Source: a virus
Lineage: Duplodnaviria > Heunggongvirae > Uroviricota > Caudoviricetes
IMG/VR virus record: IMGVR_UViG_2870464427_000002
Strand: one strand, 5' to 3'
DNA: 17,788 nt
Under the pieces are notes generated by a model. That model searched no databases. It had not been told where the DNA came from and saw only the letters and a program-made list of their open reading frames with translations. The first letter of the stretch is position 1. Each line of letters starts with the position of its first letter. The position numbers and the translations under genes are program-made. Below are positions 766 to 17,788 of the stretch, in pieces.

Positions 766-781
766 TGCCCGGCGTTATTTT
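754..781 (+). terminator. Rho-independent terminator between convergent genes
   Basis: 8-bp GC stem (754-761 pairing with 767-774), 5-nt loop, then T-tract TTATTTT (775-781). Overlaps the nucleotidyltransferase stop codon (763-765). Confidence 0.5.
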
Positions 782-1235
782 ACGGCTGATATTGCCAGCT
801 ACTGACTAAAGCGTACAAGTGGTTTGGAGAATAGCGCCAGCTTTCCTTCAGTTGCAGAAATTCAGCACAAAATTCACTGCAAAACAGGCGATCGCGCTGT
901 TCTTTATTACCGATAATAATTCCTAATGCTCCGCGCCAGTCATATTTTTTGCCATCATGTTTACGGAAAAAAGTTTCCACATCCTGAAGGCTGGCCTGGA
1001 GCGGCAGCATATCCCACTTATCCGCTGGCAATGGCATTATTTTTCCGCGTACACCGCGATCGCGCAGTGATGCGGAGTAACAAAGGTATCTCTTTTCACC
1101 ATGCTTAACGGCTAATTCACAGTGGGAATAACTACCGCGTGTGATTTTACGGGTAAGCCAGTCAGCCAGTCGGGCAATACCACGGTGCTCTGTTCGGCCC
1201 TTATAACAAGCGAGCCAGACAGTGGTTTTACTCAT
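780..1235 (-). CDS. hypothetical protein; possible permuted papain-fold (NlpC/P60-superfamily, YiiX/PPPDE-like) hydrolase in the moron position after the tail-fiber chaperone
   Basis: 151-aa ORF whose start overlaps the stop of the upstream tail-fiber assembly gene by 4 bp, suggesting translational coupling. A His (YSHCELAV) precedes a Cys in an FCSEF context, reminiscent of permuted papain-like hydrolases. Functional call is weak. Confidence 0.4.
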   Translation of the reverse strand: MSKTTVWLACYKGRTEHRGIARLADWLTRKITRGSYSHCELAVKHGEKRYLCYSASLRDRGVRGKIMPLPADKWDMLPLQASLQDVETFFRKHDGKKYDWRGALGIIIGNKEQRDRLFCSEFCAEFLQLKESWRYSPNHLYALVSSWQYQP

Positions 1236-1939
1236 GGTTGCCAGCCTGTTGAATAATCGTAGTCGAGCACCGCCTGAATATCGTCCAGTGCTTCCACCGC
1301 CGCGATATGACGCTGGGCGTTTGCGAACAAGCGCATATCGTGATCCATGGTGACCGATTCAAACTGGGCAGCGATTTCGTTGGTTAACTCAATCAGACCA
1401 TTATTTTTAGTTTTCCACATTAACCCTGGCGGAATTTTTTTCTCCGCTCCCATTTTTGTGAGTGAAAGCTGTTGGATACGGCTATTTGTATCACTGTGGA
1501 AGTGATGGTTGTTGATGATGATGTAATCGGTTGTGATGGCATCGCGTTGATTTTTGATTGCAGAGTATTTCGCCTCTTTAGCATCGGTTATAGATGGTTG
1601 CCATTTTTCACCATCCCAACGTTCAAAAGAACCTGTCGGGGAAATGACTGTTACATTTTCAGGTAATTGGCCCAATTCTTGAATAATAAGCTGGCTACCA
1701 TCAACTTTGTTATAAACAGTTTGGCCTCGATGATCTTCAATAAGTCTCCATGTTTCATTCTCCCACACTGGAGTAAAACCAGGAGCCTTTTCGGGAGGTG
1801 AAATTAATGTGCAATAATTTGGCAAGCCTGTATTAGGTGCAATGTATGCATCAGACTCACCGATATATTCTTGGGAGTCTTGTGAAAAATTATATACAGT
1901 TAGTATTTGAGCTTCATCAGAAAAGGTAAAAGTATTCAT
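1232..1939 (-). CDS. tail fiber assembly chaperone (Tfa, P2 gpG / Mu U family)
   Basis: 235 aa. N-terminal half ([20 protein letters not shown]...[12 protein letters not shown]...LG.LPENVT.ISP...W.G..W) matches the conserved Tfa N-domain of enterobacterial prophages. Lies immediately downstream of the tail fiber gene with a 4-bp overlap. Confidence 0.85.
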
Positions 1940-3516
1940 GCTAGCCTCACAATATAGTTGAATGCGATATTTTTGACGGTGTTTTCGGTGCTGCCGGTAT
2001 TATTAATGGTTAGGGAGTGGTTATGGGAACCAAGTGCAATTGAATGCGAATGGGTGCCGAGCGCAACAGTGTGCGAATGGGAACCAATTGTAACACTATG
2101 AACGTGTGATGGAACATTAATTGCCAAAGATGATCCGGTACCAGGGCCATATGATGTCCAGTCGCCTTGGCCCTCTGGTGAAGATGTCCCTGTTCTTACT
2201 GTTGCAGTTGCCGAGCCTGAGCCAGATGAACTTGTTGTTTTATTTCCATGGTTAAATGATGATGCAGTTTTAGTCCCCAAGTCTGTGAGGGGTGTGGTTT
2301 TCGTCCCTAAATCAGTACTCGAAATACTGCCCGTATGGTTATGTGATTTAACTCCATCCAGTTCAGTAGATAATATAGCGCGCCCACTGGATGGTTTTCC
2401 TTTAATTATCCATCCGCGCATATCAGGAATAACACCAGATGGATATGCAATTGCCAGTTTGGGATAGGAGGTTTTATTAAATGTCTGACCTGTCATCAGA
2501 GCGTAGCCTGAAGGTACAGAATCAGATGGCCAGGGAATAGGCATCCCAACAGGACAGCTTTCCGCAGCAATAGCCTTATCCATCGCTGCCTTAACCGCGT
2601 TCGGCGTCGCAGCTTCCGTCGTACTGGTGCTGTTGGTCGCATTATTAAGTTTCACGACCCCTTTTTGTGTCAGCGTACCGTCGGGGATACCTGTTATTTG
2701 CCCCCAGGCATGGGTATGGCTGGACGGCGCCGCAGCAATAGCCTTGTCCATCGCTGCTTTAACCGCACTTGGCGTTGCAGCTTCCGTTGTACTGGTGCTA
2801 TTTGTTGTGTTGTTAAGTTTAACGACTCCTTTCTGCGTCAGTGTACCGTCAGGGATACCAGTAATCTGATTCCAGGCATGAGTATGACTGGTTGCGGCTT
2901 TGCTATTTGCCAGGTCATATGCCGTTTTTACCGCTTTTGGCGTGGCTGCTTTAGTCTCATCATCGCTATTAGTTGCATTACTGAGCTGCGTAAAACCTTT
3001 TTGTGTCAGCGTCGCATCAGGATGATTTCGTGATTGCTGATGTGTTTTCAACGCGTCATCGACATATTCCCTGGTTGCCACAACGACTGAAGGGTCGATC
3101 AAAAGCGTCACCGCGTCTGCATTGGTGACTTCCATGACCGCGCGTATAACGATTTGCTTACTGGCCCCCGCAGGTAATCGTGGCTTATAGGTTTCCGGGA
3201 ATTTACCAATAGCGACCAGCGTGCCGTCGGTATCCAGTAACCCAACTTCGCGTACATACCAGCCTCCGACTTGTTCGGGAATAATCGCTTCTGCGATAAC
3301 CCAGGCCGGATTATCTGGCGCAATTTTTAATGTATTGAGCTGACCACGCCAGACCTCATGGACTACTTTGGTCTGACTTTCTGTCGGTTCGATATATTTA
3401 CCATTACCGTCGCCAACTACCATAGTTTGCAGACGGATCTGTTTTTGCTCGGCCAGTGCTGAGGCAATTTTGGCTTTGCCTGCAGCAGTTAATATTGTAA
3501 AAAATTCACTTGCCAT
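1936..3516 (-). CDS. tail fiber protein (P2 gpH / Mu S-like)
   Basis: Start set at ATG 3514-3516 ([16 protein letters not shown]...), 5 bp after the gpI stop; the longer track ORF overlaps gpI and is rejected. Conserved baseplate-attachment N-domain, three tandem fibre repeats (TLTQKG...ATNS...AATP.AVK.A.D.A), Gly/Ser/Thr-rich C-terminus with repeated S-H-x-H motifs. Confidence 0.85.
2518..3012 (-). repeat. tandem coding repeats, unit about 171 bp (57 aa), three copies, inside the tail fiber gene
   Basis: Near-identical DNA blocks, e.g. 2641-2700 versus 2812-2870. Protein repeats [49 protein letters not shown]. Confidence 0.7.
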
Positions 3517-3518
3517 TA

Positions 3519-4250
3519 TTACTCCGGATATACAGACATAATTTCGGTGCTCCAGTATCCTGTGCCGACCTTCATCGGTTGGGATTGTGTAAGGCGATCG
3601 GGTTGATAAGGTAGTAGTTGGATATATTCCTCCACACAATAACCCGTCGCTAAAAATATTCCTGATGACTGGCTGAGGCTTTCTGCAACAGGAGGCAATA
3701 CTGTAATGACTTCCCCTCCTTGCATGGCGCTGCCAATAACTGGTATTGGGCTTCGATTAATAAGCCAAATAACAATGCTTTCCAGCTTTGAACGAACATT
3801 TTTATATTCATGAATTAATGTGATAAGTGCATTGAATTCATCTTCATTTAATCCTTTTTCCTCTAGTGTAATATTTACCTTAAAAAAATAAGCCCTTCCC
3901 CCATATTCAAACCATTCTGAAATAGTTCCGGGTAAGGAAAGTATTTCCAGCACTCGCCGTACCGCCCAAATTGTTCCTTTATATTTATGCAGTTCAATGG
4001 CTTGTTTAATTAACTCGCGTTTCTCCCGCTCATCGGTGGTAAATAACCAACCTTCCAGCCCCTGAACGTGAAATTGTTCTGCAAGGGCTGGTAATGCCGA
4101 AGCATCAACCAGGTCGACCAGATAAACCATCAACGCCGTCAGATCGAGTTGGGCAAAACGCTCGGCGGCGATGTTTGCCAGAATCGAAAAACGCTCATCG
4201 CTGGCAAGCGGCGGCGGTGGCAGCAATTTATCCATCGCTGACTCCGGCAA
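3519..4250 (-). CDS. tail/baseplate protein, P2 gpI family
   Basis: 243 aa. LLPPPP...ER...LD...VD..DASALP.LA..FHV.G...W......[21 protein letters not shown] matches the gpI family pattern. Start may be the internal Met at 4235; overlaps the gpJ stop. Confidence 0.8.
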
Positions 4251-5343
4251 TCGTGACGTCTATTGCAGTGCATTCCGCCCATTCATGCGCCTGCAAAATA
4301 CGTTTTGTAGGCATATTCAGCGCAACGTCATAGACGCCATCGACCTGTAACACTTTGATTATCTGGTTTGGCACAATGTCCTGCCCCAGATGTTTCTGCC
4401 GCTGTTGCGTCCAGAGGCTAATCGCTTTACGCGCCGCAGCCAGCGTTGTCTCCTGATCGGCGGTGGTAAACAGCATTAGCTGCGCACGGATCTCATACGG
4501 CACTCGAAGAGCGCATTTCGCACTCACTTTGTCGGTCAGCGGTCGTTTTTTCTCCTTGCTGACTTCTTGTTCAATCTGCGCCAGCAACTCCGTGCCGGGT
4601 AGACCATTCAGGGTTAGCGGGTAGATCTCCACGCAGCCTTCTGGCAATCCCTCGTCCGGCCCCAGTACTGCAACGTCAATAATCGACTGGCTAACAGAAA
4701 GCGTATGAAAGCGGTAGGCACCATAGCTGCCCGCATTACTAAAGCTTTCTGGTGCCAGTTGGATACGCTGGCGCAATGCGTCATCGCTCTCTTCACCGCA
4801 GCCGCCCGTTGACGCAGTCAGGTTGGTTACGTTGATGTCATAATGACCAATCCTGTCGACCAGTGCGCTAATTTGTGCAGGCTGCCAGCCGTTACCCTGT
4901 TCACCTGCTGCGAGGCTGGTGGCAGGAACGGCGATATGCAAACTCCTGGCCGGAAGCAGAACATCTTCATCGGTGGCGAACATCACGCTATCAGAGGCAC
5001 TGGCCCGCGTCCCCTGGGGAATCAGGATATTGCCGGGATACGCACTAACGACCGAAAACTGCAACGTCGTTTTTGCAGGCTGCGCAGGCAAACGGTGAAC
5101 TCCCACCAACTCCCCTAAATAATCCAGCATTGGCGCGCGGGAATACGCGACCAGGTTTTGTTTCGCCGCTTCCTGAATGGCGATGCGTACAAGGTTTTCA
5201 CGATAGGCAAACAGGTCGATGAGCAACCGCTCAGCCTGTGCCGGATAGAGTTTTTTACCACTGGCATCTTCGTATTGCGCAATCATCTCACTGGTAATTT
5301 GCGCAGGATCGCGGTCAATAAAATTGGGTTCGGCTATCGCCAT
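4228..5343 (-). CDS. baseplate wedge protein, gpJ family
   Basis: 371 aa. Segments GSYGAYRFHTLSVSQSIIDVAV, LGQDIVPNQIIKVLQVDGVYDV and C-terminal [14 protein letters not shown] align with P2 gpJ as I recall it. Confidence 0.85.
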   Translation of the reverse strand: MAIAEPNFIDRDPAQITSEMIAQYEDASGKKLYPAQAERLLIDLFAYRENLVRIAIQEAAKQNLVAYSRAPMLDYLGELVGVHRLPAQPAKTTLQFSVVSAYPGNILIPQGTRASASDSVMFATDEDVLLPARSLHIAVPATSLAAGEQGNGWQPAQISALVDRIGHYDINVTNLTASTGGCGEESDDALRQRIQLAPESFSNAGSYGAYRFHTLSVSQSIIDVAVLGPDEGLPEGCVEIYPLTLNGLPGTELLAQIEQEVSKEKKRPLTDKVSAKCALRVPYEIRAQLMLFTTADQETTLAAARKAISLWTQQRQKHLGQDIVPNQIIKVLQVDGVYDVALNMPTKRILQAHEWAECTAIDVTIAGVSDG

Positions 5344-5693
5344 AACACCTCCGTTGAGTTGATAACGCCGTCAGCGGCGCGCCATTGCACACGTAACGTC
5401 AGATGTTCGCCGTCGATTACTGGTGTCACCTTCAGCAACCGACAGCGCGGTTCCCACTGGCGGATGGCTTCCACCGACTCCCGTACCACATGCGGGATAG
5501 CCCGCTCGATGGGGTAATCGATGTAGTGCCACAAGTTGCTGCCAAACAGCGGTCTGTGGGGATCACTGCCGCGCGGTGTACGCAGAATGATGTGTATTGC
5601 CTGGTGAATATCATCCAGCCCGCAGACGTATTCTTCAGGCCGCTGCAAGGCCGGTTGCCAGTGCAGCGTTGAGGGGCGTGTTTTTGTGTTCAT
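5334..5693 (-). CDS. baseplate protein, gpW/gp25 family
   Basis: 119 aa. Core I...I.ILRTPRGS and W.Y...P.........V.EAIR.WEPR match the GPW/gp25 family. Confidence 0.8.
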   Translation of the reverse strand: MNTKTRPSTLHWQPALQRPEEYVCGLDDIHQAIHIILRTPRGSDPHRPLFGSNLWHYIDYPIERAIPHVVRESVEAIRQWEPRCRLLKVTPVIDGEHLTLRVQWRAADGVINSTEVLWR

Positions 5694-5766
5694 GAGGGTA
5701 TTTTCGCCCTGAACGGGCTGTGGAGATATTAAAGCGATTTAGAAAACTGATTGATTAAAAAGAGAA

Positions 5767-5786
5767 AACCCGCCATCAGGCGGGTT
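5767..5786 (-). terminator. hairpin with downstream U-tract on the minus strand, between gpV and gpW
   Basis: AACCCGCC-ATCA-GGCGGGTT perfect 8-bp stem. On the minus-strand transcript it is followed by TTCTCTTTTT. Sits in the 98-bp gap after the gpV stop (5792-5794). Confidence 0.4.
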
Positions 5787-5791
5787 AAAAG

Positions 5792-6493
5792 TCAGTGTGA
5801 ATGGTGGTTGGAGTTGCCACCGCTGTCCTGCAATGCGCCGCTGGCCTGAACGTTGCCGATCACGTTGACATTGCCGGTTATCGTGGCTGCGTTACCGATG
5901 CCTCCACTTCCTGCCATCCCGCCAAGCCAGGTGAGTTTTTTCATTACCGTGACGTTGCCAGTAAAGGTGCTCATGGGCGCATCTACCGTCACTGCTGCTG
6001 CTTTAACCTCGACCTTAGTGGCGTCGATGCTGACATCGGTCGCTTTAACATCGACGGTATCGGAAGTCACGGTGACGTGTTGGGCTTTAATCTCAACGTT
6101 GGGCGATGTCAGGCGGGTGCTGTCGATAACCTCAATCACGATTTTCTCGATACCGCCGTTAATCGTCAGCTGGTGCGTGCTGCGGTCATATTCAAACGCT
6201 GCGCCATCAGAAAACTGGACGTAACGTTTGTCGCGCGAGGCTACAGGCGCGGTGTCAACCGTAGAATAAACGGCACCCAGCACCACGCCATCTTCACCGT
6301 TATCGTCCAGCAGAACTTCCACTTGCTCGCCCATATCCGGTAGCCAGTAGTCTTTATTGTCCTGGGAATTGCGTTGAAGTACCGCAAGCCAGTTGCTCTT
6401 CAGATTGTCACACTCTGGTAGAGTGACCCGTACCCGAACACTGGTTTCGTCAATATCGCTGATAATCCCCGTTTGACGGGTTACTCCTTTCAT
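5792..6493 (-). CDS. baseplate central spike, gpV family
   Basis: 233 aa. N-terminal OB-fold-like region typical of gpV spikes, a repetitive beta-rich middle (VTVTSDTVDVKATDVSIDATKVEVKAAAVTVDA) and a His-rich C-terminal tip (GGNSNHHSH). Confidence 0.8.
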   Translation of the reverse strand: MKGVTRQTGIISDIDETSVRVRVTLPECDNLKSNWLAVLQRNSQDNKDYWLPDMGEQVEVLLDDNGEDGVVLGAVYSTVDTAPVASRDKRYVQFSDGAAFEYDRSTHQLTINGGIEKIVIEVIDSTRLTSPNVEIKAQHVTVTSDTVDVKATDVSIDATKVEVKAAAVTVDAPMSTFTGNVTVMKKLTWLGGMAGSGGIGNAATITGNVNVIGNVQASGALQDSGGNSNHHSH

Positions 6494-6502
6494 ATTTCCT
6501 CC

Positions 6503-7543
6503 TTACTGGCTGGTCGCTGGCCCGCGTGACACGTCGATTTCAGTGGTATAGCCGCTGCGCACAAAACTGTGAGTAGATTTATCAATCAGCCACTGACCGG
6601 AAATCACGCCAAAATCGGTCAGTTCAATTTTATTGCCCGCCGTCAGTTCCGGGCAGCCCATCATTGTGAGCGTTCCGGTTTGCTGATATTCGTTGTGGCT
6701 GTCGAGTGCAGCGTTAGCCTTTGCCTGTGCTGCGCCAACGTCCGTCGCCCGACTGTTCAGTTTTAGCGTGTCGGCACTAGTGCCGACTCCACGGACAGAT
6801 GGTTTTTGCTGGCTGTTGTGAGTGTAGATAACCAGTTCTTTTTTCTTACTATTTTGATGCTGTACGGTGGCGTTCTTGTAGATCCGGTTAATGGTGTCTT
6901 TGAAGGTAAAATGAGAAACCTCTTTGCGATCGATCTTTTTCACAGGCGTCAGGCAGCGCAGCGTGGGTAAATGTGAAAAAATCAGCTCTTTTGTCGTCAC
7001 TTTTACGGCATAACCATATTCACTGGCCAGACGTTTGAGAAATCCGACATCGGTTTCACCATACTGCGTTACCCGGTCGATGGTGAGCGACTCGATTTTG
7101 CCCACCAGTTTCAGACCGTGCGTTTGGGCAATACGGCTGGCGATCGCCGAAAGCGTCGTTTCTTCAAAGCCCTGGCTGTTACGGGTGCGCAGCGCCTGAT
7201 TGACGGAAGTGGCGATGCCATCAATATTTACCGTGGAAGGTGGCGCTGAAATATCAATTTTATCAATAATATACTGGCCACAATCGAGCAGCTTTTCCCC
7301 CTGATAACCTATATGCAGCGCCAGCGTATCGCCTTTGCCGGGATACCACTCTTTTATCCAGCGTCCATCTGTGTCATCCAGTGTAATTGCGATGGTATCC
7401 GACTCGTTTTTGATGCTGTCGTGGTAACTGATGCTGGTGACATAGGGTGTGATGTCATAAGTGATATCTTTATGCCCATACCAGAGGGTAAAAATGGGCG
7501 TGAGTGTGGCAAAGACGCCACCAGTTACGCTCATCTCAGCCAT
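6503..7543 (-). CDS. baseplate hub protein, P2 gpD (late control D) family
   Basis: 346 aa. Size, position between gpX and gpV, and overall composition fit the gpD/gp27-like hub family; call rests on synteny and general resemblance. Confidence 0.75.
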   Translation of the reverse strand: MAEMSVTGGVFATLTPIFTLWYGHKDITYDITPYVTSISYHDSIKNESDTIAITLDDTDGRWIKEWYPGKGDTLALHIGYQGEKLLDCGQYIIDKIDISAPPSTVNIDGIATSVNQALRTRNSQGFEETTLSAIASRIAQTHGLKLVGKIESLTIDRVTQYGETDVGFLKRLASEYGYAVKVTTKELIFSHLPTLRCLTPVKKIDRKEVSHFTFKDTINRIYKNATVQHQNSKKKELVIYTHNSQQKPSVRGVGTSADTLKLNSRATDVGAAQAKANAALDSHNEYQQTGTLTMMGCPELTAGNKIELTDFGVISGQWLIDKSTHSFVRSGYTTEIDVSRGPATSQ

Positions 7544-7740
7544 GGTGGGATCTCCGATAAGGTTTTATTAACGGAAATGACCGGAATAATGAGCTGAATA
7601 CCGGAAGGCAGTACCGGGTAAATGGCTACATGTGGATTGGCGGCGATTATGCGTTCATAAGCCAGCGCATCACCGTAGTAATGCCATGCCAGGTTATCCC
7701 AGCGTTCGCCATCGGTGGTGATATGTTCAAGGTATCGCAT
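7531..7740 (-). CDS. tail protein X (P2 gpX-like, LysM-like fold)
   Basis: 69 aa. W..L...YYG.......I..ANP..A....LP.G....IP pattern as in P2 gpX. Overlaps the gpD start. Confidence 0.7.
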   Translation of the reverse strand: MRYLEHITTDGERWDNLAWHYYGDALAYERIIAANPHVAIYPVLPSGIQLIIPVISVNKTLSEIPPWLR

Positions 7741-8693
7741 TACCAGCTCCTGGTAATGGTTACGGCAGCAAGCTGGCTCACTGCGGGAGTGGTTTGTTGT
7801 ACCGTTGTACGTGCCTGCTCAACCAACGACGTGGCTTTATCGAACGTCGCTTCGGCGATGTCGCTGGTAATGTCGTCGAAAAGCGCCTGAGCATGGTCAA
7901 CCAGCGTACTGGCGTCATTGGCGCAGTCCCGGATACCTGGCATGTTACCCAGTAAAGCTTTAATCTGCGCCGACAACGCTTTTGGTAGGCCTGCCAGCGT
8001 TTGCAGATCCATTGGCTGTTTAAACAGGGTTTCGATGGCGTCGATTGTCTTTTTCAATGACGTAATTATCTTTTCACACTTTTCTTTTAACGCTTTGGCC
8101 TCTTTAATCATTGCTTTCACTTTTGCCACCGTTTTTTTAATATCTTCAATGGATTGTGTCAGTTCATCCAGCATCTCTTTGGCCTTACGCATACCTTCTT
8201 CAATGGCGTTTAATATCTGATCAAACCAGGACTCCACCTTGTCGGGAAAATCGCTCGCCTTTTCCTCGATGTTGGGCTCCTGGGTGGTAATCGCCGGAGG
8301 TAAAAGTGGATTTTTAGGATCGCCGGTGTACTCCTGGAGCGACATCGTTCCGTTTTGGGCAATCACATTGCCCCAGGGATCGGTGTGCTGGTGGGTGGCG
8401 GTTAGCTCCGTAATCACAAACCAGCCGCGATAATCGCCATTGCCAAATACCAGTGCCATCGCCTTGTGAGCAAGCATGGCTTCACGCAGTCGGTTCAGCT
8501 CTGTTGTGGGCTGGCAAAACTGGCTGTGCAGGGAAAATTCCAGCGCCAGCATATCCAGCTTATCGCCAATAAACTGCACGCCGGGTTTGCCTTCTATACG
8601 GGCATGTGTGGCGTAATCCACGCCCATTGTGCTTTTAAAGCCGTCCCAGAATGTGACAACCTTAAATTCAATCTCTCCTAAAACGGCATACAT
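7740..8693 (-). CDS. gpU-like tail protein with a long C-terminal coiled-coil extension
   Basis: 317 aa. The first ~120 aa (MYAVLGEIEFKV...GKPGVQFIG...L.LEF.L.........L..L...AM....MALVFGNGDYRGWFVITEL) resemble P2 gpU. The remaining ~190 aa are Lys/Glu/Ala-rich heptad-like sequence. Start overlaps the tape measure stop by 1 nt. Confidence 0.65.
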   Translation of the reverse strand: MYAVLGEIEFKVVTFWDGFKSTMGVDYATHARIEGKPGVQFIGDKLDMLALEFSLHSQFCQPTTELNRLREAMLAHKAMALVFGNGDYRGWFVITELTATHQHTDPWGNVIAQNGTMSLQEYTGDPKNPLLPPAITTQEPNIEEKASDFPDKVESWFDQILNAIEEGMRKAKEMLDELTQSIEDIKKTVAKVKAMIKEAKALKEKCEKIITSLKKTIDAIETLFKQPMDLQTLAGLPKALSAQIKALLGNMPGIRDCANDASTLVDHAQALFDDITSDIAEATFDKATSLVEQARTTVQQTTPAVSQLAAVTITRSW

Positions 8694-11068
8694 TAGGCAT
8701 ACCCCCGGCGCTGCTGCTGCGCCATTACATCGTTAATCATTCTTTCCAGTTCGCGTTTACTCATCGTCAACACGTTCTGAATCTCTTTAGTGGTGTTTTG
8801 TCCGTTACCCTGCACGGTAATTTGTGGCGAAAAATTCACCTGAACTTTTCCTGAGGAACGGGAAGGTAGCGTCGCCGCTTTGGTTACGGATTTACCAGGT
8901 AAAGAGGCAGATACGGGTTTGGCGGCTGTATTTTTTGCCGCTGGCGCCGATGACGGCGTAGCCGTTTTGCCGGATGGCGCGAGTTGTTTGCCCACCGGCG
9001 GCGTTAAAATCGCACCGGCAACGCCTGGAACAACGGTCGCGGGGGAGACGGATGCGGTATTAGTCGTGCTTGTAATAGCTGTAGCCGATCCTTCTGTACT
9101 AATACCCATCGTGGTTTTTAGCCAGTCTGGGATGGCGTTTTTTACCTGATCAATAATGCCTTTCAGAGCGGGGAAGGCATTCATTATGCCGTCAACCAGA
9201 CTGCCCAGAAGATTGCTGCCGAACTCGCTAAAACTTGCAGGCATCTCGACACCAAACCAATTCATCACACTGGAAAAGGCGCTATAGAACAACTCCAGCG
9301 GTGACCAGTCGAGAATCAACCGACAAATTCCTGCAATGCCGCCGTCAAAGGCCGTGGTGATACGTTGCCAGATGGTCGAAAAGAACCTGGAGATAGGCTC
9401 CCAGTTGCGATAAATCAGATAAGCAGCGCCCGCAATCGCAGTGATGACCAGACCAATGGGATTCATCAGTAGCACCCGGCCTAGTGAGAGAACGGTCCGA
9501 CCAACCAGTTTCAATGTTCCAATCAGGCCACGACCAAGCAGTTGCGTTAGCCATTTTGCGCCGCCACCCAATGACTTAACCGCTGATAGCATCTTACTTG
9601 CCCCGCCTGTGAGCGCCAGACTTGCCTTGACTTTCAGGAAGATATCGACCAGACGAATAAACGGCGAGGTGATGAGGTTCGCGCCCAGCTTTAAAACATT
9701 CAGCGCACCGTTAAACAGCCAAATCGCCCCGACGATTTTCGCGATGTTTTGCACCAGTGTCGGGTGCTCACGTAGCCAGGCGCTGAACTGACGAATAACC
9801 GGCGTAAGGCTTTGTGCCAGCTCGCCAATCAGCGGCATTAATTGCAAGCCAATGCTGAGCCATAAATCATTTAACGCCAGCTGTAACGCTTTAGTCTGTT
9901 CAATGGGCGAGGCCATTTGCGCAGAAAAGTCGGCATCAATCAGATTCTTGCTGGTGGCTTGCATGGCAGAGGCTTTTAACTGGCGATATTCCTCCATATT
10001 CGCCAGCATAGGGGCCAGGAATTCCACTGTTTGCGCATCGCCGAACATTTCCCCCAGATTAAACTGCGTCACCATCGATTGCAGCGCATTGCTGCGGGCA
10101 GATAAATCTTCGATCTGCATGGTGCGTTTGAAGGTGTCGAGGATCGCCGGATTCATCTTCTCAAGCTGCATTTGCACGATATGAGTCATGGCTTCGCTAA
10201 CACCCATACCGTTTTGCTGATGCTCAAGCAGAGAGCCTTGCAGATCAACGCCCTGGCTGACGAACCAGTAATCGGTTTTTTTCGAAAAGGTGGTTTGCAG
10301 AAAGTGGTCGAAATTCTCCGCCGCCGCACTGGCGCTGGCCCCGTTTTTCATGGCGATCTGCATGGTGGCGGTCAGTTCAGCCATACCTTCCAGACCCTGA
10401 GCGCCGGTTTTACCTGCAAATTTCTCTATCCACTGCGTTTGTTCAGCAATGGCAGGCCCACCGCTTTTGCTAATGCCGTACATCATGTTTTGCGCGGCGT
10501 GGAAATTTTCCGGGGCAATATTCAGTCGATCATGGGTTGCGAGCGCGGCATTCGCCCATGTTTCAGCACTTTCGCGCGTGGCGGTGGCAGCTTTGGCGAT
10601 CTCCGGCATATAACGGTTGAGATCCTGTATCGACGACAAATTGCCTTCGATCAGCGTTTGGGCTGCGTTCTGTAAGGTGGTCTGCTGCTGGTTAAAATCC
10701 ATGCTCCAGTCGCGCAGATTAAGGCTGAGCGTCTCGCGGGTTGTAGCATTCATCCCACCTTTGGTCGCCATATTGACCATGTTGTCCTGAAACTCATACG
10801 GCAACTTCCAGTCGGGGGCTTCAACATTGAATACTTTGCTAAATTGCCCGGCAAATGTTTGGGTTTTCTCCATCAGATTAGCGCGGCTGCGGCTATTTTC
10901 CTCCAGGCGGAGAGCGGAATCGGCAAGCTGCTGCGTTAGTTTGATAACTGTCGCCTGCTGAGTAGAGAGAGTTAACAATGTTCTGGCGTTGAGTGAGCCG
11001 TAACGGGCTATTGCCTGCGTCAACGTCTCATTACGCGCCTGAAGCTGGGTAATAATATCGTTGGCCAA
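8693..11068 (-). CDS. tail tape measure protein
   Basis: 791 aa. Alpha-helical N-terminal region, central hydrophobic Gly-rich segments (LIGTLKLVGRTVLSLGRVLLMNPIGLVITAIAGAAYLIY), Ser/Thr/Pro-rich C-terminal region. Lies between the chaperone and baseplate genes. The track start is a TTG codon, so the exact start is uncertain. Confidence 0.85.
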   Translation of the reverse strand: MANDIITQLQARNETLTQAIARYGSLNARTLLTLSTQQATVIKLTQQLADSALRLEENSRSRANLMEKTQTFAGQFSKVFNVEAPDWKLPYEFQDNMVNMATKGGMNATTRETLSLNLRDWSMDFNQQQTTLQNAAQTLIEGNLSSIQDLNRYMPEIAKAATATRESAETWANAALATHDRLNIAPENFHAAQNMMYGISKSGGPAIAEQTQWIEKFAGKTGAQGLEGMAELTATMQIAMKNGASASAAAENFDHFLQTTFSKKTDYWFVSQGVDLQGSLLEHQQNGMGVSEAMTHIVQMQLEKMNPAILDTFKRTMQIEDLSARSNALQSMVTQFNLGEMFGDAQTVEFLAPMLANMEEYRQLKASAMQATSKNLIDADFSAQMASPIEQTKALQLALNDLWLSIGLQLMPLIGELAQSLTPVIRQFSAWLREHPTLVQNIAKIVGAIWLFNGALNVLKLGANLITSPFIRLVDIFLKVKASLALTGGASKMLSAVKSLGGGAKWLTQLLGRGLIGTLKLVGRTVLSLGRVLLMNPIGLVITAIAGAAYLIYRNWEPISRFFSTIWQRITTAFDGGIAGICRLILDWSPLELFYSAFSSVMNWFGVEMPASFSEFGSNLLGSLVDGIMNAFPALKGIIDQVKNAIPDWLKTTMGISTEGSATAITSTTNTASVSPATVVPGVAGAILTPPVGKQLAPSGKTATPSSAPAAKNTAAKPVSASLPGKSVTKAATLPSRSSGKVQVNFSPQITVQGNGQNTTKEIQNVLTMSKRELERMINDVMAQQQRRGYA

Positions 11069-11257
11069 AATTGTTTCTCTTTAAATATTGATAATGGCCC
11101 GCTGGTTATTTTTCTAAAAAAAGGGGCAGGGAAGAAATAAACCTGACGGGCTTGGGAAACTCGCAGACATCAGGTCTGCGAGTCATATTCGATTTTTATT
11201 TGGGCGCTGGCTTCATCCAGCCAGTTGCTAAAGTCATCGACGGTAAGGGCGTCTATC

Positions 11258-11575
11258 TCACTGGGTGGAAAGCGAAACCATCTCGCCAGTAACGCCATCG
11301 CTTGCCATAACAGTGGCGGATTCTGTAGCCACGCTAAGCATGGATTGAAATCGTTTCTGCAATGCCTGGTAATCCAGCAAATCCATTTCAGCTAAATCTT
11401 CTGGCACCAGTCCGGTCATTGCCGCCATTAGCGGTTCATCCCACTCTTCAGGTTTTTCGCTGATCCGGCGCGCGTTGCGCATATCTTTTACTTTCAGGCG
11501 ACGTAATTGCAGAGTGTTAATTACGTCTCCCGCCGCTGAAGTAAACGGGAACTGTAAGATATAATGTTCTTTCAT
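11258..11575 (-). CDS. tail assembly chaperone, P2 gpE family
   Basis: 105 aa, acidic, in the conserved position between tube and tape measure. An alternative frame stays open past its stop (see findings). Confidence 0.75.
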   Translation of the reverse strand: MKEHYILQFPFTSAAGDVINTLQLRRLKVKDMRNARRISEKPEEWDEPLMAAMTGLVPEDLAEMDLLDYQALQKRFQSMLSVATESATVMASDGVTGEMVSLSTQ

Positions 11576-11625: not shown

Positions 11626-12150
11626 TTAGCCACCGATGTTATTGCGATAGGTACTTAATTGATCCACACCATTAACCCGGAAAATATTGGCCATATAATC
11701 AAGTTCAAGCAGCGTTTCACCATCAACTACTTGTTTAATATAAGTGCAACCAAAGGCGCTGCTGAATTCCGGGTTTTCATTCTGTTTAAATGTGCCCAGT
11801 GGATTCTTTTTAAACATCACGGTTAAATGTGTCACTAGCGCTAATTGATTCGCTTTCCCCTGGGAGTTATAGCAATCAATACTGGAGCGGCACTGTAATG
11901 CAACCGCCTGCCACGGGTTTGCCGTTTTACGCATTACGTCCTGATAGAAGGAGTTCCATTTAATTTCGCCCTCCAGTTTATCGAAACCCGCCGGGAGTTC
12001 GATTTTACCCACCATGCCCAGTGCTTTATGCTCCTGCATAATTAAACTGACATCCGGCAATTTAATTTCGGTTGCACGACCTAAAAGGTTATTACCATCG
12101 AGATAAATATTGGCGTTGGTAATACGGTTAATTTGAATTTTTCCAGCCAT
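11626..12150 (-). CDS. tail tube protein (P2 FII family)
   Basis: 174 aa. C-terminal ...VNGVDQLSTYRNNIGG closely matches the P2 FII C-terminus (VNGVD.L...R.NIG). Start overlaps the sheath stop by 1 nt. Confidence 0.85.
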   Translation of the reverse strand: MAGKIQINRITNANIYLDGNNLLGRATEIKLPDVSLIMQEHKALGMVGKIELPAGFDKLEGEIKWNSFYQDVMRKTANPWQAVALQCRSSIDCYNSQGKANQLALVTHLTVMFKKNPLGTFKQNENPEFSSAFGCTYIKQVVDGETLLELDYMANIFRVNGVDQLSTYRNNIGG

Positions 12151-13573
12151 TAGCTATTGCTCTCCAGAGAGACTAAATATTCAGAAGTAATTTCAGTTTC
12201 AAACGTCAGACGTTCCAGCGGCGGCGGCGGGGTGAATTTATAGCTCAGCAATAAATGCCCAGCGCTGAGTTCAGTCGGTGAATTTCGCGCCGGATCGTAC
12301 CAGCATTCAAAGCCAAGCAGTGCGCCGTCGGCAATCAGCTTACGGCCCCAGGTATTTACCGATTCGGTCAGGGCATCAATCAGCGCCTGATTAATCGGCA
12401 TATCAATATACTGCTGACTGAAATAACGGATTGACTCATTAATTACATCGCCTGTCCGGCGGACGTTTTCAAAGTTACGCATATGGGTCACGGTAGGCCA
12501 CGCTGCAGTGCGGTTGCCCCACAAGCGCAGACCAGAGCCGTAACTATTGAAAATAGTGGTAATGCCGTTTTCGTTTAGCTGATTCACTTCGCTTTGTGGA
12601 TCATCAATCATTGCGGAAAGCGAACGTTCAATACCGGTAATACCCTGAATTTCTTGGTTTGAGTTGCTCCACCAGAAACCTTTTTCGAGGTCTACTTTGG
12701 CACGTAGCCCGGCAGCGCGCGAAGAGAGCGGTTCGAGAACTTCCTGGTTAGTGATGCCATCGTAAACTTTGACGTGTGGGTAACATAAACGCGCACGATC
12801 AGAGCTGGTGTTGAAGTTGATAGCCCCTTGCGAACCGCGTCCTGCCAATACCTGCTGGAATGTCGTCCCAATCGGGGCATCAATGTAGGTAATCGCACCA
12901 AGTTTTTCCGCTTGTGCAATCAGCTCTGTAGTTACTGATTTTTGCGTACAGAACACGGGAGCAAGCAGGATTTTGGCGTAGAAACCATACAGGTTATAGG
13001 TGTCCTGTAGCAGTTTCATCCCCGTGCGGTCGCCTGCGGTATTTACGGTACCGATAATATCGGCTGCGGTGACCTTTGTAGGGTCGCACCAGGAATAATA
13101 GGCACAAACTTTCGCACCAGGAGGAATGTCGGCTCCTTTACGGGTAATTATGCCTGTTTGTTCATCTACGCTAAATGCTGCGGTGTTAAAGGTTGATGAA
13201 TTTGATGAAGAGGGCTTTAGTACCACGTTACGCACATTGCGGTGAGCGAGCTTCGCCTGGTTGTTAGCATCAAAAGTGATACTCTCATTGCTGATGTTGG
13301 AGCCATGTTTTGCCGGATCCAGCACGTTAATCACCACCACCGTACCGGCACCGTGGTCATAAATTGCCTTCAGTGCCTGTGGGATCGTAAAGTTAGCCTG
13401 AGTCGAGCCAAACTGCGCAGCATCGCTTTCAGAAAGGCATAATGTTGGTTTATTTACCGGACCGCAGGGGCTGTACCGATTAAAGCGATGACGGCGGATT
13501 TTACCGCTTTAACCGGACGCGGGCCGGTTTCAATTTCAATAGTTTCTACACCGTGCAGATAATTAGCTGCCAT
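12150..13573 (-). pseudogene. contractile tail sheath (P2 FI / Mu L family) interrupted by an apparent 1-nt frameshift near 13457-13468
   Basis: From ATG 13573 one frame encodes MAANYLHGVETIEIETGPRPVKAVKSAVIALIGTAPAVR then stops (TAA 13454-13456). The adjacent frame is open from 13508 and continues PVNKPTLCLSESDAAQFG...VVVINV... through the 396-aa track ORF, whose C-terminus (LRLWGNRTAAWPT...YKFTPPPPLERLTFE) is sheath-like. One extra G in mRNA GCGGTCCGG would join the two frames. Confidence 0.7.
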
Positions 13574-13760
13574 GTACAATTTCCTCTACGTTATTTTGTT
13601 CTTCCTGAGTGATGACAGGAGTCAGATGATTGCGGGCAATCATGGTCATGACCCACTCGTTGTCTTCTGGCAGATCAATTTCACTGTTCGGCCACAATAA
13701 GATTTCTTGTCCATCGGCAAGGGTGACGCCGCTTGCTGGGCCGTTGTAGATGTATTTCAT
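13563..13760 (-). CDS. small hypothetical protein upstream of sheath
   Basis: 65-aa ORF overlapping both neighbours. Its position recalls the small gene preceding the sheath gene in Mu-like tail modules. No motif recognised. Confidence 0.45.
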   Translation of the reverse strand: MKYIYNGPASGVTLADGQEILLWPNSEIDLPEDNEWVMTMIARNHLTPVITQEEQNNVEEIVHGS

Positions 13761-14212
13761 TCAGTTTCCTCGTAGTTAACTTCCGTAAGCAGGGGAAGAT
13801 CCGTGCTTTCCTGTTCAGCGATAAATAGCGAGCTGGTCGCCATTTCCAGGATGTAGCGGCAGAAACCGCCGCTCTCACCCGTATTAATTTCTTTTTCAAG
13901 CCAAAGAAGACGATCGCAATCAGGAAGCTGAAGGCCACCCAATGCGCTGCGTATGTGATCAAGTGCGTTTAATGCATCACAATTTTTGCCAACAATAACG
14001 GTGGCGGTTAAGCGGAGTATTTGCTGTTGCACGATGGCATTACTGCTTTCGGGCGTAGCAAAGACAGAACCGCTATAATTAATAATCACTGCAACTCGTT
14101 GTGTCTGTGGAATATATTTCTGGGCATCCTTAGATGAAATAAATATATCCATTTCGGAGTTGTGTTCACGTAATCTGGTCACAACAGAATTCATTACAGA
14201 TAAAATTTCCAT
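13757..14212 (-). CDS. hypothetical tail-associated protein (possible tail completion protein)
   Basis: 151-aa ORF with an AAGG ribosome-binding site upstream of ATG 14210-14212; first gene after the terminator. Function inferred from position only. Confidence 0.5.
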   Translation of the reverse strand: MEILSVMNSVVTRLREHNSEMDIFISSKDAQKYIPQTQRVAVIINYSGSVFATPESSNAIVQQQILRLTATVIVGKNCDALNALDHIRSALGGLQLPDCDRLLWLEKEINTGESGGFCRYILEMATSSLFIAEQESTDLPLLTEVNYEETE

Positions 14213-14317
14213 ATAGGCTGTACCTTAATTACCGCTCACTTCGTTATCGTTGAAATGTATTCTGAAGCAGCGAAGGTGAAGAATCTTTTAATGTGATTTA
14301 GAGAAAAAATTGAATGG

Positions 14318-14343
14318 TTAAAAAAATCCCCACCCTTACATAA
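14318..14343. terminator. strong bidirectional intrinsic terminator between the lysis cassette and the tail genes
   Basis: Perfect 11-bp stem TCCCCACCCTT / AAGGGTGGGGA with loop ACAT, flanked by A7 (14311-14317) and T5 (14344-14348). On the minus strand the hairpin is followed by a U7 tract. Confidence 0.6.
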
Positions 14344-14356
14344 GGGTGGGGATTTT

Positions 14357-14671
14357 TCAATAACTGCCACGTTGTAACAGCTCGATTTTGCTATATAAGG
14401 CATCCAGCTTCGCTTCTAATACTGCTTGCCCACGAAGATAATCTTCTCTGCGGACATAATGCAGCGGAAGCTCGGCACGAAATTCGAGAAATTCTCTTTC
14501 CAGTTTCGACCAACTTGTTTCTGATTCCCGGCGCGCGTTTTCCAGAGATTCAAAACGCTCATTAAGTCGTTTTTCAATTTGTGCTAACAGCAGTTTTCCG
14601 GCAGCAAACATTAATCCAACGAAGGAAAGCATAAGGGAGATCACTTCCCAAAAATCGATACTGAGTTTCAT
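14357..14671 (-). CDS. membrane-anchored coiled-coil protein, possible lysis accessory (spanin-like)
   Basis: 104 aa. N-terminal transmembrane helix (VISLMLSFVGLMFAAGKLLL) followed by a charged helical region. Last gene of the lysis block. Confidence 0.45.
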   Translation of the reverse strand: MKLSIDFWEVISLMLSFVGLMFAAGKLLLAQIEKRLNERFESLENARRESETSWSKLEREFLEFRAELPLHYVRREDYLRGQAVLEAKLDALYSKIELLQRGSY

Positions 14672-14683
14672 CGGCCCCTCTGA

Positions 14684-15289
14684 TTAATGAAGACAGCTTG
14701 CCTGTCCCCAGAGTAAATAGCGGGCGGCATGTTGATAGAGGATCATCTTTGGATAGCGACGATTTTCTCGCCAGTTCGTGGCGCTGCGCCCGGCGTTGAC
14801 TTGCTCAACATGACCAAACCAGCTAGTGGCATCTAACCCTTTGGATGCAGCCAGTTTTTTATCCCGGTTAACCCACCCCTGACCGCCGTTATAGGCGCTT
14901 AGGGTAAACGCCATACGCTGACAATCATTTTTCGCAGAGATGTTTTTCCACAAATGCTGGTCATATTGCACCAGCGCGCGAATCGCCCAGGTTGGGTTAT
15001 ACGGTTTGTTTTCACGCAATTGTGGATACAACTGGCTTATCCATGTCGCTGTAGCAGGCATAAATTGCGCCATACCTTGTGCGCCAACGGGGGAACGTAC
15101 CATTGGCTGCCAGGCGGACTCCTGGTGTAATTGCCCGGCAAAGTCGGCCACTGGGGCATTCAGCCCCCAGACTTCTCGAGCTGTACGAATTAGTTCGTTT
15201 CGCCATGCCAGAGAGGCTCTCGGCGGTTCAGAGGCGTTGAGTGGGAAAAGAACGAAAATAATCATAGACGCGATATATTTCAGCCACAT
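14684..15289 (-). CDS. lytic transglycosylase (SLT/GH23 domain) with N-terminal signal sequence; putative endolysin
   Basis: Start set at ATG 15287-15289 (MWLKYIASMIIFVLFPLNA...), 2 bp after the holin-like stop; the track's longer N-terminal extension is rejected. SLT motifs present: HQESAWQP, GAQGMAQFMPATA, AYNGG. Confidence 0.8.
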   Translation of the reverse strand: MWLKYIASMIIFVLFPLNASEPPRASLAWRNELIRTAREVWGLNAPVADFAGQLHQESAWQPMVRSPVGAQGMAQFMPATATWISQLYPQLRENKPYNPTWAIRALVQYDQHLWKNISAKNDCQRMAFTLSAYNGGQGWVNRDKKLAASKGLDATSWFGHVEQVNAGRSATNWRENRRYPKMILYQHAARYLLWGQASCLH

Positions 15290-15291
15290 CA

Positions 15292-15579
15292 CTATAGCCC
15301 TAACGCGACGGAAAGGCAGACGGCAGCAACGATGATAGCCCGGCGAATCATTGCCGCCGCGCAGCAACGCGGTTCCTTCCAGGGGCAAAAAGAGTCAGGC
15401 CGTGCCCAGGGGAACAAACTGCGATCGAGCCAGTATCCCAGCACCGCGGAAAGCGAAACCAGGCTTAGTTTATAAATGACGACCGGGATTTGTGCTGAAG
15501 AGGTCCAGCCGATCACGACAAACAGCGCGACGGAAGCGACCAGCCAACCGGAAAGCCGGGGAAGAGTGACTTTTTTCAT
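15292..15579 (-). CDS. small membrane protein, putative holin
   Basis: 95 aa with two to three predicted transmembrane segments. AGGAG ribosome-binding site 8 nt upstream of ATG 15577-15579. Immediately precedes the transglycosylase. Confidence 0.5.
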   Translation of the reverse strand: MKKVTLPRLSGWLVASVALFVVIGWTSSAQIPVVIYKLSLVSLSAVLGYWLDRSLFPWARPDSFCPWKEPRCCAAAMIRRAIIVAAVCLSVALGL

Positions 15580-15875: not shown

Positions 15876-15889
15876 TACTGTATGTGTAT
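15876..15889. promoter_or_regulatory. left half of a LexA (SOS) box split by the insertion (TACTGT + duplicated spacer)
   Basis: Removing the insertion and one duplication copy gives TACTGTATGTGTATACAGTA, a perfect 20-bp palindrome with the CTGT-N8-ACAG architecture (18/20 to TACTGTATATATATACAGTA). Confidence 0.45.
15882..15889. repeat. target-site duplication, left copy (ATGTGTAT)
   Basis: Identical 8-mer directly abutting the left inverted repeat; second copy at 17206-17213. 8 bp is the duplication size expected for ISL3-family elements. Confidence 0.75.
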
Positions 15890-17205
15890 GGGTCTTCCCT
15901 TGTTGTGGTGGCTGAAGGCATGATAATGGTGTATTTAATCGCCAGAGGTCACCGCCATGGACGAAAAGTCCCTCTACGCTCATATTCTCAACCTGTCCGA
16001 TCCGTGGCAGGTAAAGTCCCTTTCTCTCGATGAAAATGCCGGTTCTGTTACTGTCACTATTGAGATCGCTGAAAACACCCGGCTAGCCTGTCCGACCTGC
16101 GGTAAATCCTGTTCTGTTCACGATCACCGTCATCGTAAATGGCGCCATCTTGATACCTGCCAGTTCACCACTATTGTTGAAGCCGATGTTCCACGAATTA
16201 TGTGTCCGGAGCATGGCTGCCTGACGTTGCCTGTTCCGTGGGCTGGCCCCGGAAGCCGGTATACGTTGCTATTCGAATCGTTCGTTCTCTCATGGCTGAA
16301 AATCAGCACCGTTGATGCTGTCAGGAAGCAACTTAAGCTCAGTTGGAATGCGGTTGACGGCATTATGACCCGGGCAGTTAAGCGAGGTCTTGCCCGGATA
16401 AAAAAGCCATTATCCGCCCGTCATATGAATGTGGATGAGGTCGCCTTTAAAAAAGGACATCGTTACATAACGGTGATCTCCGATCGCGATGGTCGGGCGC
16501 TGGCCTTAACGGATGATCGCGGCACAGAGAGTCTTGCCGGCTATCTTCGCACGCTCACTGATGGGCAGTTGCTGGCTATCAAAACGCTCTCAATGGACAT
16601 GAACGCGGGCTATATAAGAGCAGCGCGTATCCACTTACCCAGTGCGGTTGAGAAAATCGCCTTTGACCGCTTCCATGTGGCGAAGCAACTGGGCGAGGTA
16701 GTTGATAAAACCCGTCAGAATGAACATCCGCACCTCCCTGTTGAAAGCCGACACCAGGCAAAAGGAACCCGCTTCCTGTGGCAGTACAGCGATAAGTGGA
16801 TGACCGAATCCCGGCAGGAAAAGCTGATGTGGCTGCGTGCACAGATGAAGCTGACGAGCCAGTGCTGGGCGCTGAAAGAGCTGGCAAAGGATATCTGGAA
16901 CAGGCCATGGAGCGAGGAAAGACGGAGTGACTGGCAGAGATGGTTGGCGCTGGCGGCTAACAGTGACGTTCCCATGATGAAAAATGCCGCGAAAACGATA
17001 GGAAAAAGGCTGTACGGGATCCTGAATGCGATGCGACACAGTGTCTCAAACGGAAATGCGGAGGCACTTAACAGCAAGATCAGGCTGCTGAGGATAAAAG
17101 CCAGGGGATACCGAAACCGGGAGCGCTTTAAACTGGGGGTGATGTTCCACTACGGAAAGCTGAATATGGCGTTCTGAGCCTTCCCACCATGATCGGGGAA
17201 GACCC
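15890..17205 (+). mobile_element. ISL3-family insertion sequence, 1316 bp, apparently intact
   Basis: Terminal inverted repeats GGGTCTTCCC (15890-15899) and GGGAAGACCC (17196-17205), with further inner matches (TGGTGG). Flanked by 8-bp direct repeats ATGTGTAT. Carries a single transposase ORF. Confidence 0.8.
15957..17177 (+). CDS. ISL3-family transposase
   Basis: 406 aa. N-terminal zinc-ribbon CPTCGKSCSVHDHRHRKWRHLD and the MNVDEVAFKKGHRYITVISD block are characteristic of ISL3 transposases. Confidence 0.85.
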   Translation: MDEKSLYAHILNLSDPWQVKSLSLDENAGSVTVTIEIAENTRLACPTCGKSCSVHDHRHRKWRHLDTCQFTTIVEADVPRIMCPEHGCLTLPVPWAGPGSRYTLLFESFVLSWLKISTVDAVRKQLKLSWNAVDGIMTRAVKRGLARIKKPLSARHMNVDEVAFKKGHRYITVISDRDGRALALTDDRGTESLAGYLRTLTDGQLLAIKTLSMDMNAGYIRAARIHLPSAVEKIAFDRFHVAKQLGEVVDKTRQNEHPHLPVESRHQAKGTRFLWQYSDKWMTESRQEKLMWLRAQMKLTSQCWALKELAKDIWNRPWSEERRSDWQRWLALAANSDVPMMKNAAKTIGKRLYGILNAMRHSVSNGNAEALNSKIRLLRIKARGYRNRERFKLGVMFHYGKLNMAF

Positions 17206-17213
17206 ATGTGTAT
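17206..17213. repeat. target-site duplication, right copy (ATGTGTAT)
   Basis: Identical 8-mer directly abutting the right inverted repeat. Confidence 0.75.
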
Positions 17214-17440: not shown

Positions 17441-17788
17441 ATGATACGAAAATCAAAAGAGATGGCCCGGACACCGGAGATCATTAACGACCTGGCTTTT
17501 CATGCATCGCAAGTTCTGATTGAAAGCATCAATCTCGACAGTTCATCGGCAGAAAATGTGGGCTTTGCCATTGCCGACCGAATGATGCGTAACTGGGGCG
17601 GACAAAGCATTTATTTCCCTAAGGGGATCTCCGGACGAGCATCGGAGCGTGACTACCAAATCTATAGCGAGTGCGATGGGCGCAACTACGCCGAATTAGC
17701 GAAGAAATATAATCTGACGCTGCAATGGATTTATAAGATTGTGAAACGCGTACATGCGGAAAAGCAACAGCGCCGCAGTAATTCGTAA
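17441..17788 (+). CDS. Mor/C-family transcriptional activator (phage Mu middle/late activator family)
   Basis: 115 aa. GGAG 7 nt upstream of the ATG. WGGQSIYFPKG...RD..I......G.NY.ELAKKYNLTLQWIYKIVKR aligns with Mu Mor (GGGQVYIPRG...RDLRIWNDFNGRNVSELTTRYGVTFNTVYKAIRR), including the C-terminal helix-turn-helix. Stop codon is the last three bases of the window. Confidence 0.75.
   Translation: MIRKSKEMARTPEIINDLAFHASQVLIESINLDSSSAENVGFAIADRMMRNWGGQSIYFPKGISGRASERDYQIYSECDGRNYAELAKKYNLTLQWIYKIVKRVHAEKQQRRSNS

Follow-up and report, generated by a model that had tools for sequence, protein, structure and literature searches.

The tail sheath gene in the window, i.e., in the whole analysed stretch of 17,788 nucleotides, is broken into two reading frames at a short homopolymer, and the most likely cause of this split is a sequencing or assembly error in which the length of the homopolymer was miscalled. 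A run of five C's on the gene strand would have been read as four in incompletely polished data of a homopolymer-error-prone type, such as long-read data, and the living strain would then produce a normal 474-residue contractile sheath from a tail-only, R-pyocin-like gene cluster.

On the minus strand, the first frame starts with the ATG at 13573-13571, reads MAANYLHGVETIEIETGPRPVKAVKSAVIALIGTAPAVR, and ends with the TAA stop codon at 13456-13454. It has 39 codons, 36 of them for native residues and the last three for AVR. The -1 frame, which reads ...CGPVNKPTLCLSESDAAQFG..., is open from 13508 to the stop codon at 12152-12150 on the same strand, and the preceding stop is at 13511-13509. Its earliest start codon, the GTG at 13340, is at the position of residue 79 in the intact protein and results in an ORF of 396 amino acids. 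The parts of the gene are as follows:

12150-13573, minus strand: whole tail sheath gene, orthologue of WP_000729835.1 (474 aa) and of Salmonella STM4213.
13454-13573, minus strand: 5' sheath fragment, 39 codons plus TAA; the exact peptide is present in public collections.
13467-13470, minus strand: homopolymer with the lesion, four C's versus five (C4 versus C5), at codons 35-36 (GCC CCC in the intact gene).
12150-13508, minus strand: 3' sheath part in the -1 frame, native residues 37-474, with PF04984 and PF17482.

A preliminary description of this DNA had attributed the split to a 1-nt deletion, with coordinates that all proved to be correct, and the two frames indeed overlap only within 13454-13511. 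The junction had been estimated at about 13457-13468; this is about right, but alignment to intact relatives placed the missing base in the run at 13467-13470 (CCCC on the gene strand, GGGG on the plus strand) and thus at the upper edge of that range. The run has four bases in the window and five in the intact relatives examined, and alignment with strain 2016C-3878 showed a single difference, CCCCC in that strain and CCCC in the window (gene strand). On the plus strand, one additional G joins the frames, exactly as had been proposed, and addition of this base resulted in an ORF of precisely the anticipated length of 474 codons plus stop, whose product is identical to WP_000729835.1. The suggested comparison with intact orthologues gave the same picture, as the relatives carry five C's and a single frame. 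As the 5' and 3' pieces are each 100% identical to the matching part of the annotated 474-aa tail sheath protein, a chance pattern of ORFs is ruled out. In all relatives examined, the N-terminal linking strand and the core domains are encoded in one continuous ORF; in the window, the frame breaks after residue 36.

Judged by its domains and its structurally solved relatives, the gene encodes a contractile-tail sheath protein of the P2 FI/R-pyocin type, in line with the assignment made before. The restored protein matched Phage_sheath_1 (PF04984, the subtilisin-like sheath domain) with 107.7 bits at residues 182-357 (cut-off 31.4), a match that was also obtained with the 391-aa fragment, and it matched Phage_sheath_1C (PF17482, the C-terminal domain) with 65.2 bits at residues 366-463 (cut-off 26.9). 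The best solved relative was the R2 pyocin sheath PA0622 (3J9Q; E 5e-45, residues 167-469), to whose residues 2-85 the residues 4-84 of the restored sheath could also be aligned, and eleven more sheath chains matched, including T4 gp18, Afp3, and Pvc2. As with the sheaths of the R-type pyocin of P. aeruginosa (PA0622, 3J9Q/3J9R) and of P2 (gpFI), the tube gene follows directly after the sheath gene. With 474 residues, the window sheath is longer than PA0622 with its 386 residues and contains an extra inserted region at about residues 85-165.

In sheaths of this kind, each subunit pairs through its N-terminal strand with the C-terminus of a neighbouring subunit in an inter-subunit "handshake" that ties the rings together (PMC10457771). 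Because a break after residue 36 cuts this subunit-linking strand off from the protein body, a real C4 form would be a null allele, and no sheath would be assembled at all. The preliminary description had expected that an inactive sheath would merely make the tail non-contractile, which falls short of this consequence.

To the exclusion of this one run, the window agrees with its nearest relatives. It is identical to E. coli EC0585 (NZ_CP195049.1) at all other positions of the 17,788, including the rare insertion of ISKox3, and in an alignment of 15,889 nt with the IS-less MRY15-117, the run is the single gap and no mismatch occurs. All 90 other runs of at least five bases and all 49 Dcm sites in the window agree with EC0585. 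A 1,471-nt region matched 195 RefSeq complete E. coli genomes, the best matches being one base longer. Of the RefSeq complete genomes, 193 carry the locus, and none of them had an exact match to a 71-nt probe with four C's that spans the run. When 60 records were sampled evenly down the ranking of these 193, all 60 were one base longer than the aligned stretch of the probe. No RefSeq complete genome matched a probe for the second common allele in its four-C form. A pattern that allowed either run length matched one metagenome contig, which has the intact C5, and no viral contig, and an exact 38-nt pattern was not found in GTDB representatives.

The sheath gene had a dN/dS of 0.03-0.13 among E. 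coli alleles and of 0.08 between E. coli and Salmonella STM4213 (at a dS of 1.6), and these ratios indicate that it is under strong purifying selection. True decay usually combines several lesions with relaxed selection. As the sheath is under purifying selection and the other genes of the window are identical to those of intact relatives, the earlier view of a decaying element is unsupported, and the absence of exact four-C matches from the complete genomes speaks against it as well.

In public assemblies, the four-C form does occur. The exact 39-aa stub was found on about 20 contigs from at least 10 independent samples. Among the alternative downstream calls, which were also looked up as exact sequences, those of 391 and 289 aa were present, and those of 396, 395, 394, and 361 aa were not found in the public collections. 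Sibling stubs of other alleles end with ..TSPAVR (28 contigs) or ..APVVR (10 contigs), and one stub (P0003) is the C4 form of the second allele, with an NCBI contig of 5.16 Mb among those that carry it. Further length variants at the site include a +1 insertion (P0002) and a deletion in the neighbouring GG run (P0005), and such variants are the typical picture of miscalls. At least three different local haplotypes have the four-C run (ACA-GCCCC, ACG-GCCCC, and ACA-TCCCC), so that C4 has arisen many times.

The error load was judged on 10 stub-bearing contigs. Four of them (L004, L005, L006, and L012) have 13-52 additional gap openings each, many of them in homopolymers, and in L006 the neighbouring G5 and C5 runs have also lost a base. 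L008 has one extra indel, in the tube gene at a Dcm motif, and L010 has one extra deletion, in a CTCTCT repeat. Only in L007, L009, and L013 is C4 the sole indel; these contigs of 1.6-9.6 kb are from SRR26800332, SRR15988984, and ERR12767383, and L007 shares the haplotype of the window. Of the index blocks with the stub, 13 of 20 have contigs below 2 kb, and all three places with at least 10 kb are in error-rich, long-read-style assemblies.

A second site of recurrent indels is a G4 run in the tube gene (11857-11863) that overlaps a Dcm motif (CCAGG on the gene strand). The indel splits the tube protein into 102 and 69 aa in the long-read-style contigs L004, L006, and L008, and the window is intact at this site.

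Other E. coli strains carry a frameshifting 28-nt deletion in the sheath gene that lies between 11-nt direct repeats (TCCTGGTGCGA). It is equivalent to window positions 13091-13118, where the window itself is intact. The deletion was found on two haplotypes. Its contigs, of 12-48 kb, are clean and have intact neighbouring genes, and by this context it is a genuine knockout allele of the sheath. It was this allele, and not the C4 allele, that surfaced via the downstream call of 289 aa. A real sheath mutation thus sits on long clean contigs, whereas C4 does not, and in this respect C4 is unlike a real mutation.

That C4 is absent from complete genomes and recurs in error-rich assemblies makes the artefact the most likely explanation, and we infer that C4 in the window has the same cause as in those assemblies. 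The preliminary description had named a sequencing error in a homopolymer as the alternative to decay; it fits the evidence better, as the four-C variant occurs on several haplotypes and almost only on contigs that are short or dense in homopolymer errors. False pseudogenes from homopolymer errors in long-read (nanopore-type) data likewise have single-base deletions in G/C runs of five, and C4 shares with such errors the recurrence across unrelated samples together with other indels at homopolymers and Dcm sites as well as the absence from complete genomes. It differs from them in that the window has one indel in 17.8 kb and that the run is outside the known E. coli methylation motifs. The rest of the window being free of errors, any error here would be an isolated residual one. 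The C5 run was checked for Dcm and Dam motifs and is part of neither, and no specific cause of a systematic miscall was identified. A miscall at a methylation motif was therefore rejected for the C run, which in this point is unlike the recurrent error site in the tube gene.

The clean remainder of the window and the three public contigs with C4 as their only indel, including the one with the haplotype of the window, would rather be expected if replication slippage from C5 to C4 had created a genuine, very recent null mutation that is private to the strain. Translation would then stop after 39 codons, and the remaining 438 codons would have no start before residue 79, so that the sheath could not polymerise and the tail-like particle would be unmade or inert. 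Homopolymers are natural sites of slippage, the break of the handshake strand would make a real frameshift a null, and loss-of-function alleles of the sheath gene do exist in nature, as the independent 28-nt deletion on two haplotypes demonstrates. We nevertheless regard such a private mutation as unlikely. None of the 193 complete genomes matches the four-C probe exactly, and none of the stub contigs is clean at 10 kb or more, in contrast to those with the 28-nt deletion. With at least three haplotypes, C4 would have arisen more often than the repeat-mediated deletion, and as a mutational hot spot, a run of five bases is too weak to explain such recurrence. The gene is under purifying selection, and no selective benefit of losing the sheath is apparent, since the lysis genes are still intact. 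A real deletion would knock out a tail-like particle in this strain, as an ordinary, private mutation of only local interest, and would be an ordinary case of the frameshift pseudogenes of cryptic prophages, in which slippage in a short homopolymer truncates a structural gene; in contrast to true pseudogenes, however, the other genes of the window match intact relatives and dN/dS is low. It is still more doubtful that C4 is both real and recurrent and that, together with the 28-nt deletion, it reflects repeated knockouts of the sheath of the lysC-linked tailocin in E. coli lineages. In that improbable case, a long-domesticated tailocin would be losing its sheath through mutational hot spots, while the sheath gene is otherwise under purifying selection.

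A functional two-frame sheath gene, expressed by programmed -1 frameshifting or switched by phase variation of the C tract, is effectively excluded. It is true that the exact wild-type protein would result if tRNA-Pro slipped by -1 on the C run and that some leaky full-length product is conceivable, but the arrangement is not conserved, with 0 of 193 complete genomes matching the four-C probe and a single-frame orthologue in Salmonella, and no heptamer of the type X XXY YYZ is present anywhere in 13440-13520. As the sheath is required in very many copies per particle, rare slippage would also be insufficient. The tracts of contingency loci are far longer than the 4-5 bases found here, and the four-C probes revealed no OFF-length allele among the 193 complete genomes. 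Both variants were thus rejected on the grounds of non-conservation, the missing slippery heptamer, and the short tract.

Taking the miscall as the preferred explanation, we note as a caution that one wrong homopolymer length suffices to make an intact gene under selection look like a pseudogene, which invites a story of a decaying prophage. The surrounding element is of greater weight than the frameshift. It is tail-only, pyocin-like, and under purifying selection, and E. coli and Salmonella have it at the same site. Its further features in the window are:

780-11575, minus strand: rest of the P2-like tail module, from Pfam matches and RefSeq annotation.
11626-12150, minus strand: tail tube gene (Phage_tube, P2 FII type; PF04985, 189.9 bits), whose ATG overlaps the sheath stop codon.
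13563-15579, minus strand: upstream genes of the same operon, encoding holin, SLT transglycosylase, a membrane protein, a Gp37-family protein, and a 65-aa ORF.
15890-17205, plus strand: ISKox3 (ISL3 family), 1316 nt, between mor and the holin gene, with an 8-bp target duplication at 15882-15889 and 17206-17213.
17441-17788, plus strand: gene of a Mor-family transcription activator, divergent from the lysis/tail operon; lysC is next in EC0585.

In EC0585, the order is mor, ISKox3, holin, SLT transglycosylase, membrane protein, Gp37, 65-aa ORF, sheath, tube, and tail genes. After the tube gene, the module continues with the tail assembly chaperone, the tape measure, gpU-like, X, D, V, W, J, and I genes, and it ends after I with the tail fibre, a fibre-assembly protein, and a hypothetical protein. 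A complete contractile tail module is thereby present, comprising the sheath (intact only with the C run restored), tube, chaperone, tape measure, baseplate, fibre, and fibre assembly, and it is accompanied by a lysis cassette with holin (PF13272) and SLT transglycosylase (PF01464) and by the regulator Mor (PF08765). The EC0585 cluster is flanked by lysC on one side and by the genes for a nucleotidyltransferase, a slipin, and yjbD on the other side, and no genes for head, packaging, replication, or integration were found in it. Tail genes without any of these functions correspond to an organisation like that of R-type tailocins, and the cluster looks like a long-maintained tailocin rather than a decaying prophage. 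It was found in only about 3.6% of the complete E. coli genomes. R-pyocin clusters are likewise tail-only with lysis genes of their own; they are regulated by PrtN/PrtR, whereas the window cluster, a putative tailocin, has a Mor-family activator.

A cluster with the same order of tail and lysis genes, from mor to the fibre-assembly gene, is the defective prophage "Def4" of Salmonella Typhimurium LT2 (STM4196-STM4219), and the Salmonella cluster (STM4198-STM4219) is at the same chromosomal site as that of E. coli, by lysC-pgi. Its sheath STM4213 has 82% protein identity to the E. coli sheath, and the first 41 residues are identical. The Salmonella copy differs from that of E. coli by its fibre and by O-antigen modification genes of the gtrABC type, which lie between W and V. 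In a Salmonella gene table, STM4196, STM4198, STM4205, and STM4213 are placed under "Def4" (PMC3591323). The literature searched contained no description of an E. coli tailocin at lysC, only Salmonella gene lists under "Def4".

Some further aspects of the cluster deserve mention. The intergenic region between mor and the holin gene has 534 nt, and ISKox3 lies 310 nt upstream of the holin gene. The element may cut off the activator gene from the late promoter, and EC0585 is the only genome with it among the best-ranked matches to the whole window in 5,426 complete genomes. The 65-aa ORF at 13563-13760 had no Pfam match; it overlaps the sheath start by 11 nt and is conserved as Salmonella STM4214.

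After the tail assembly chaperone gene (11258-11575) and overlapping its end, an unannotated second-frame extension (..ARWFRFPPSEIDALTVDDFSNWLDEASAQIKIEYDSQT) is present at 11170-11298. A hand-made chaperone fusion gave a weak match to Phage_P2_GpE, with 17.6 bits versus a cut-off of 23, and no slippery site was located for the extension. It probably represents the programmed frameshift that is conserved in tail chaperones, as in P2 E/E+E'.

The tail fibre gene (1936-3639) is one open ORF of 567 aa with tail-collar N-terminal, fibre-repeat, and Collar domains. In EC0585 and MRY15-117, RefSeq annotates the fibre as two partial pseudogenes (2269-2562 and 2617-3516). The fibre is probably mosaic but intact.
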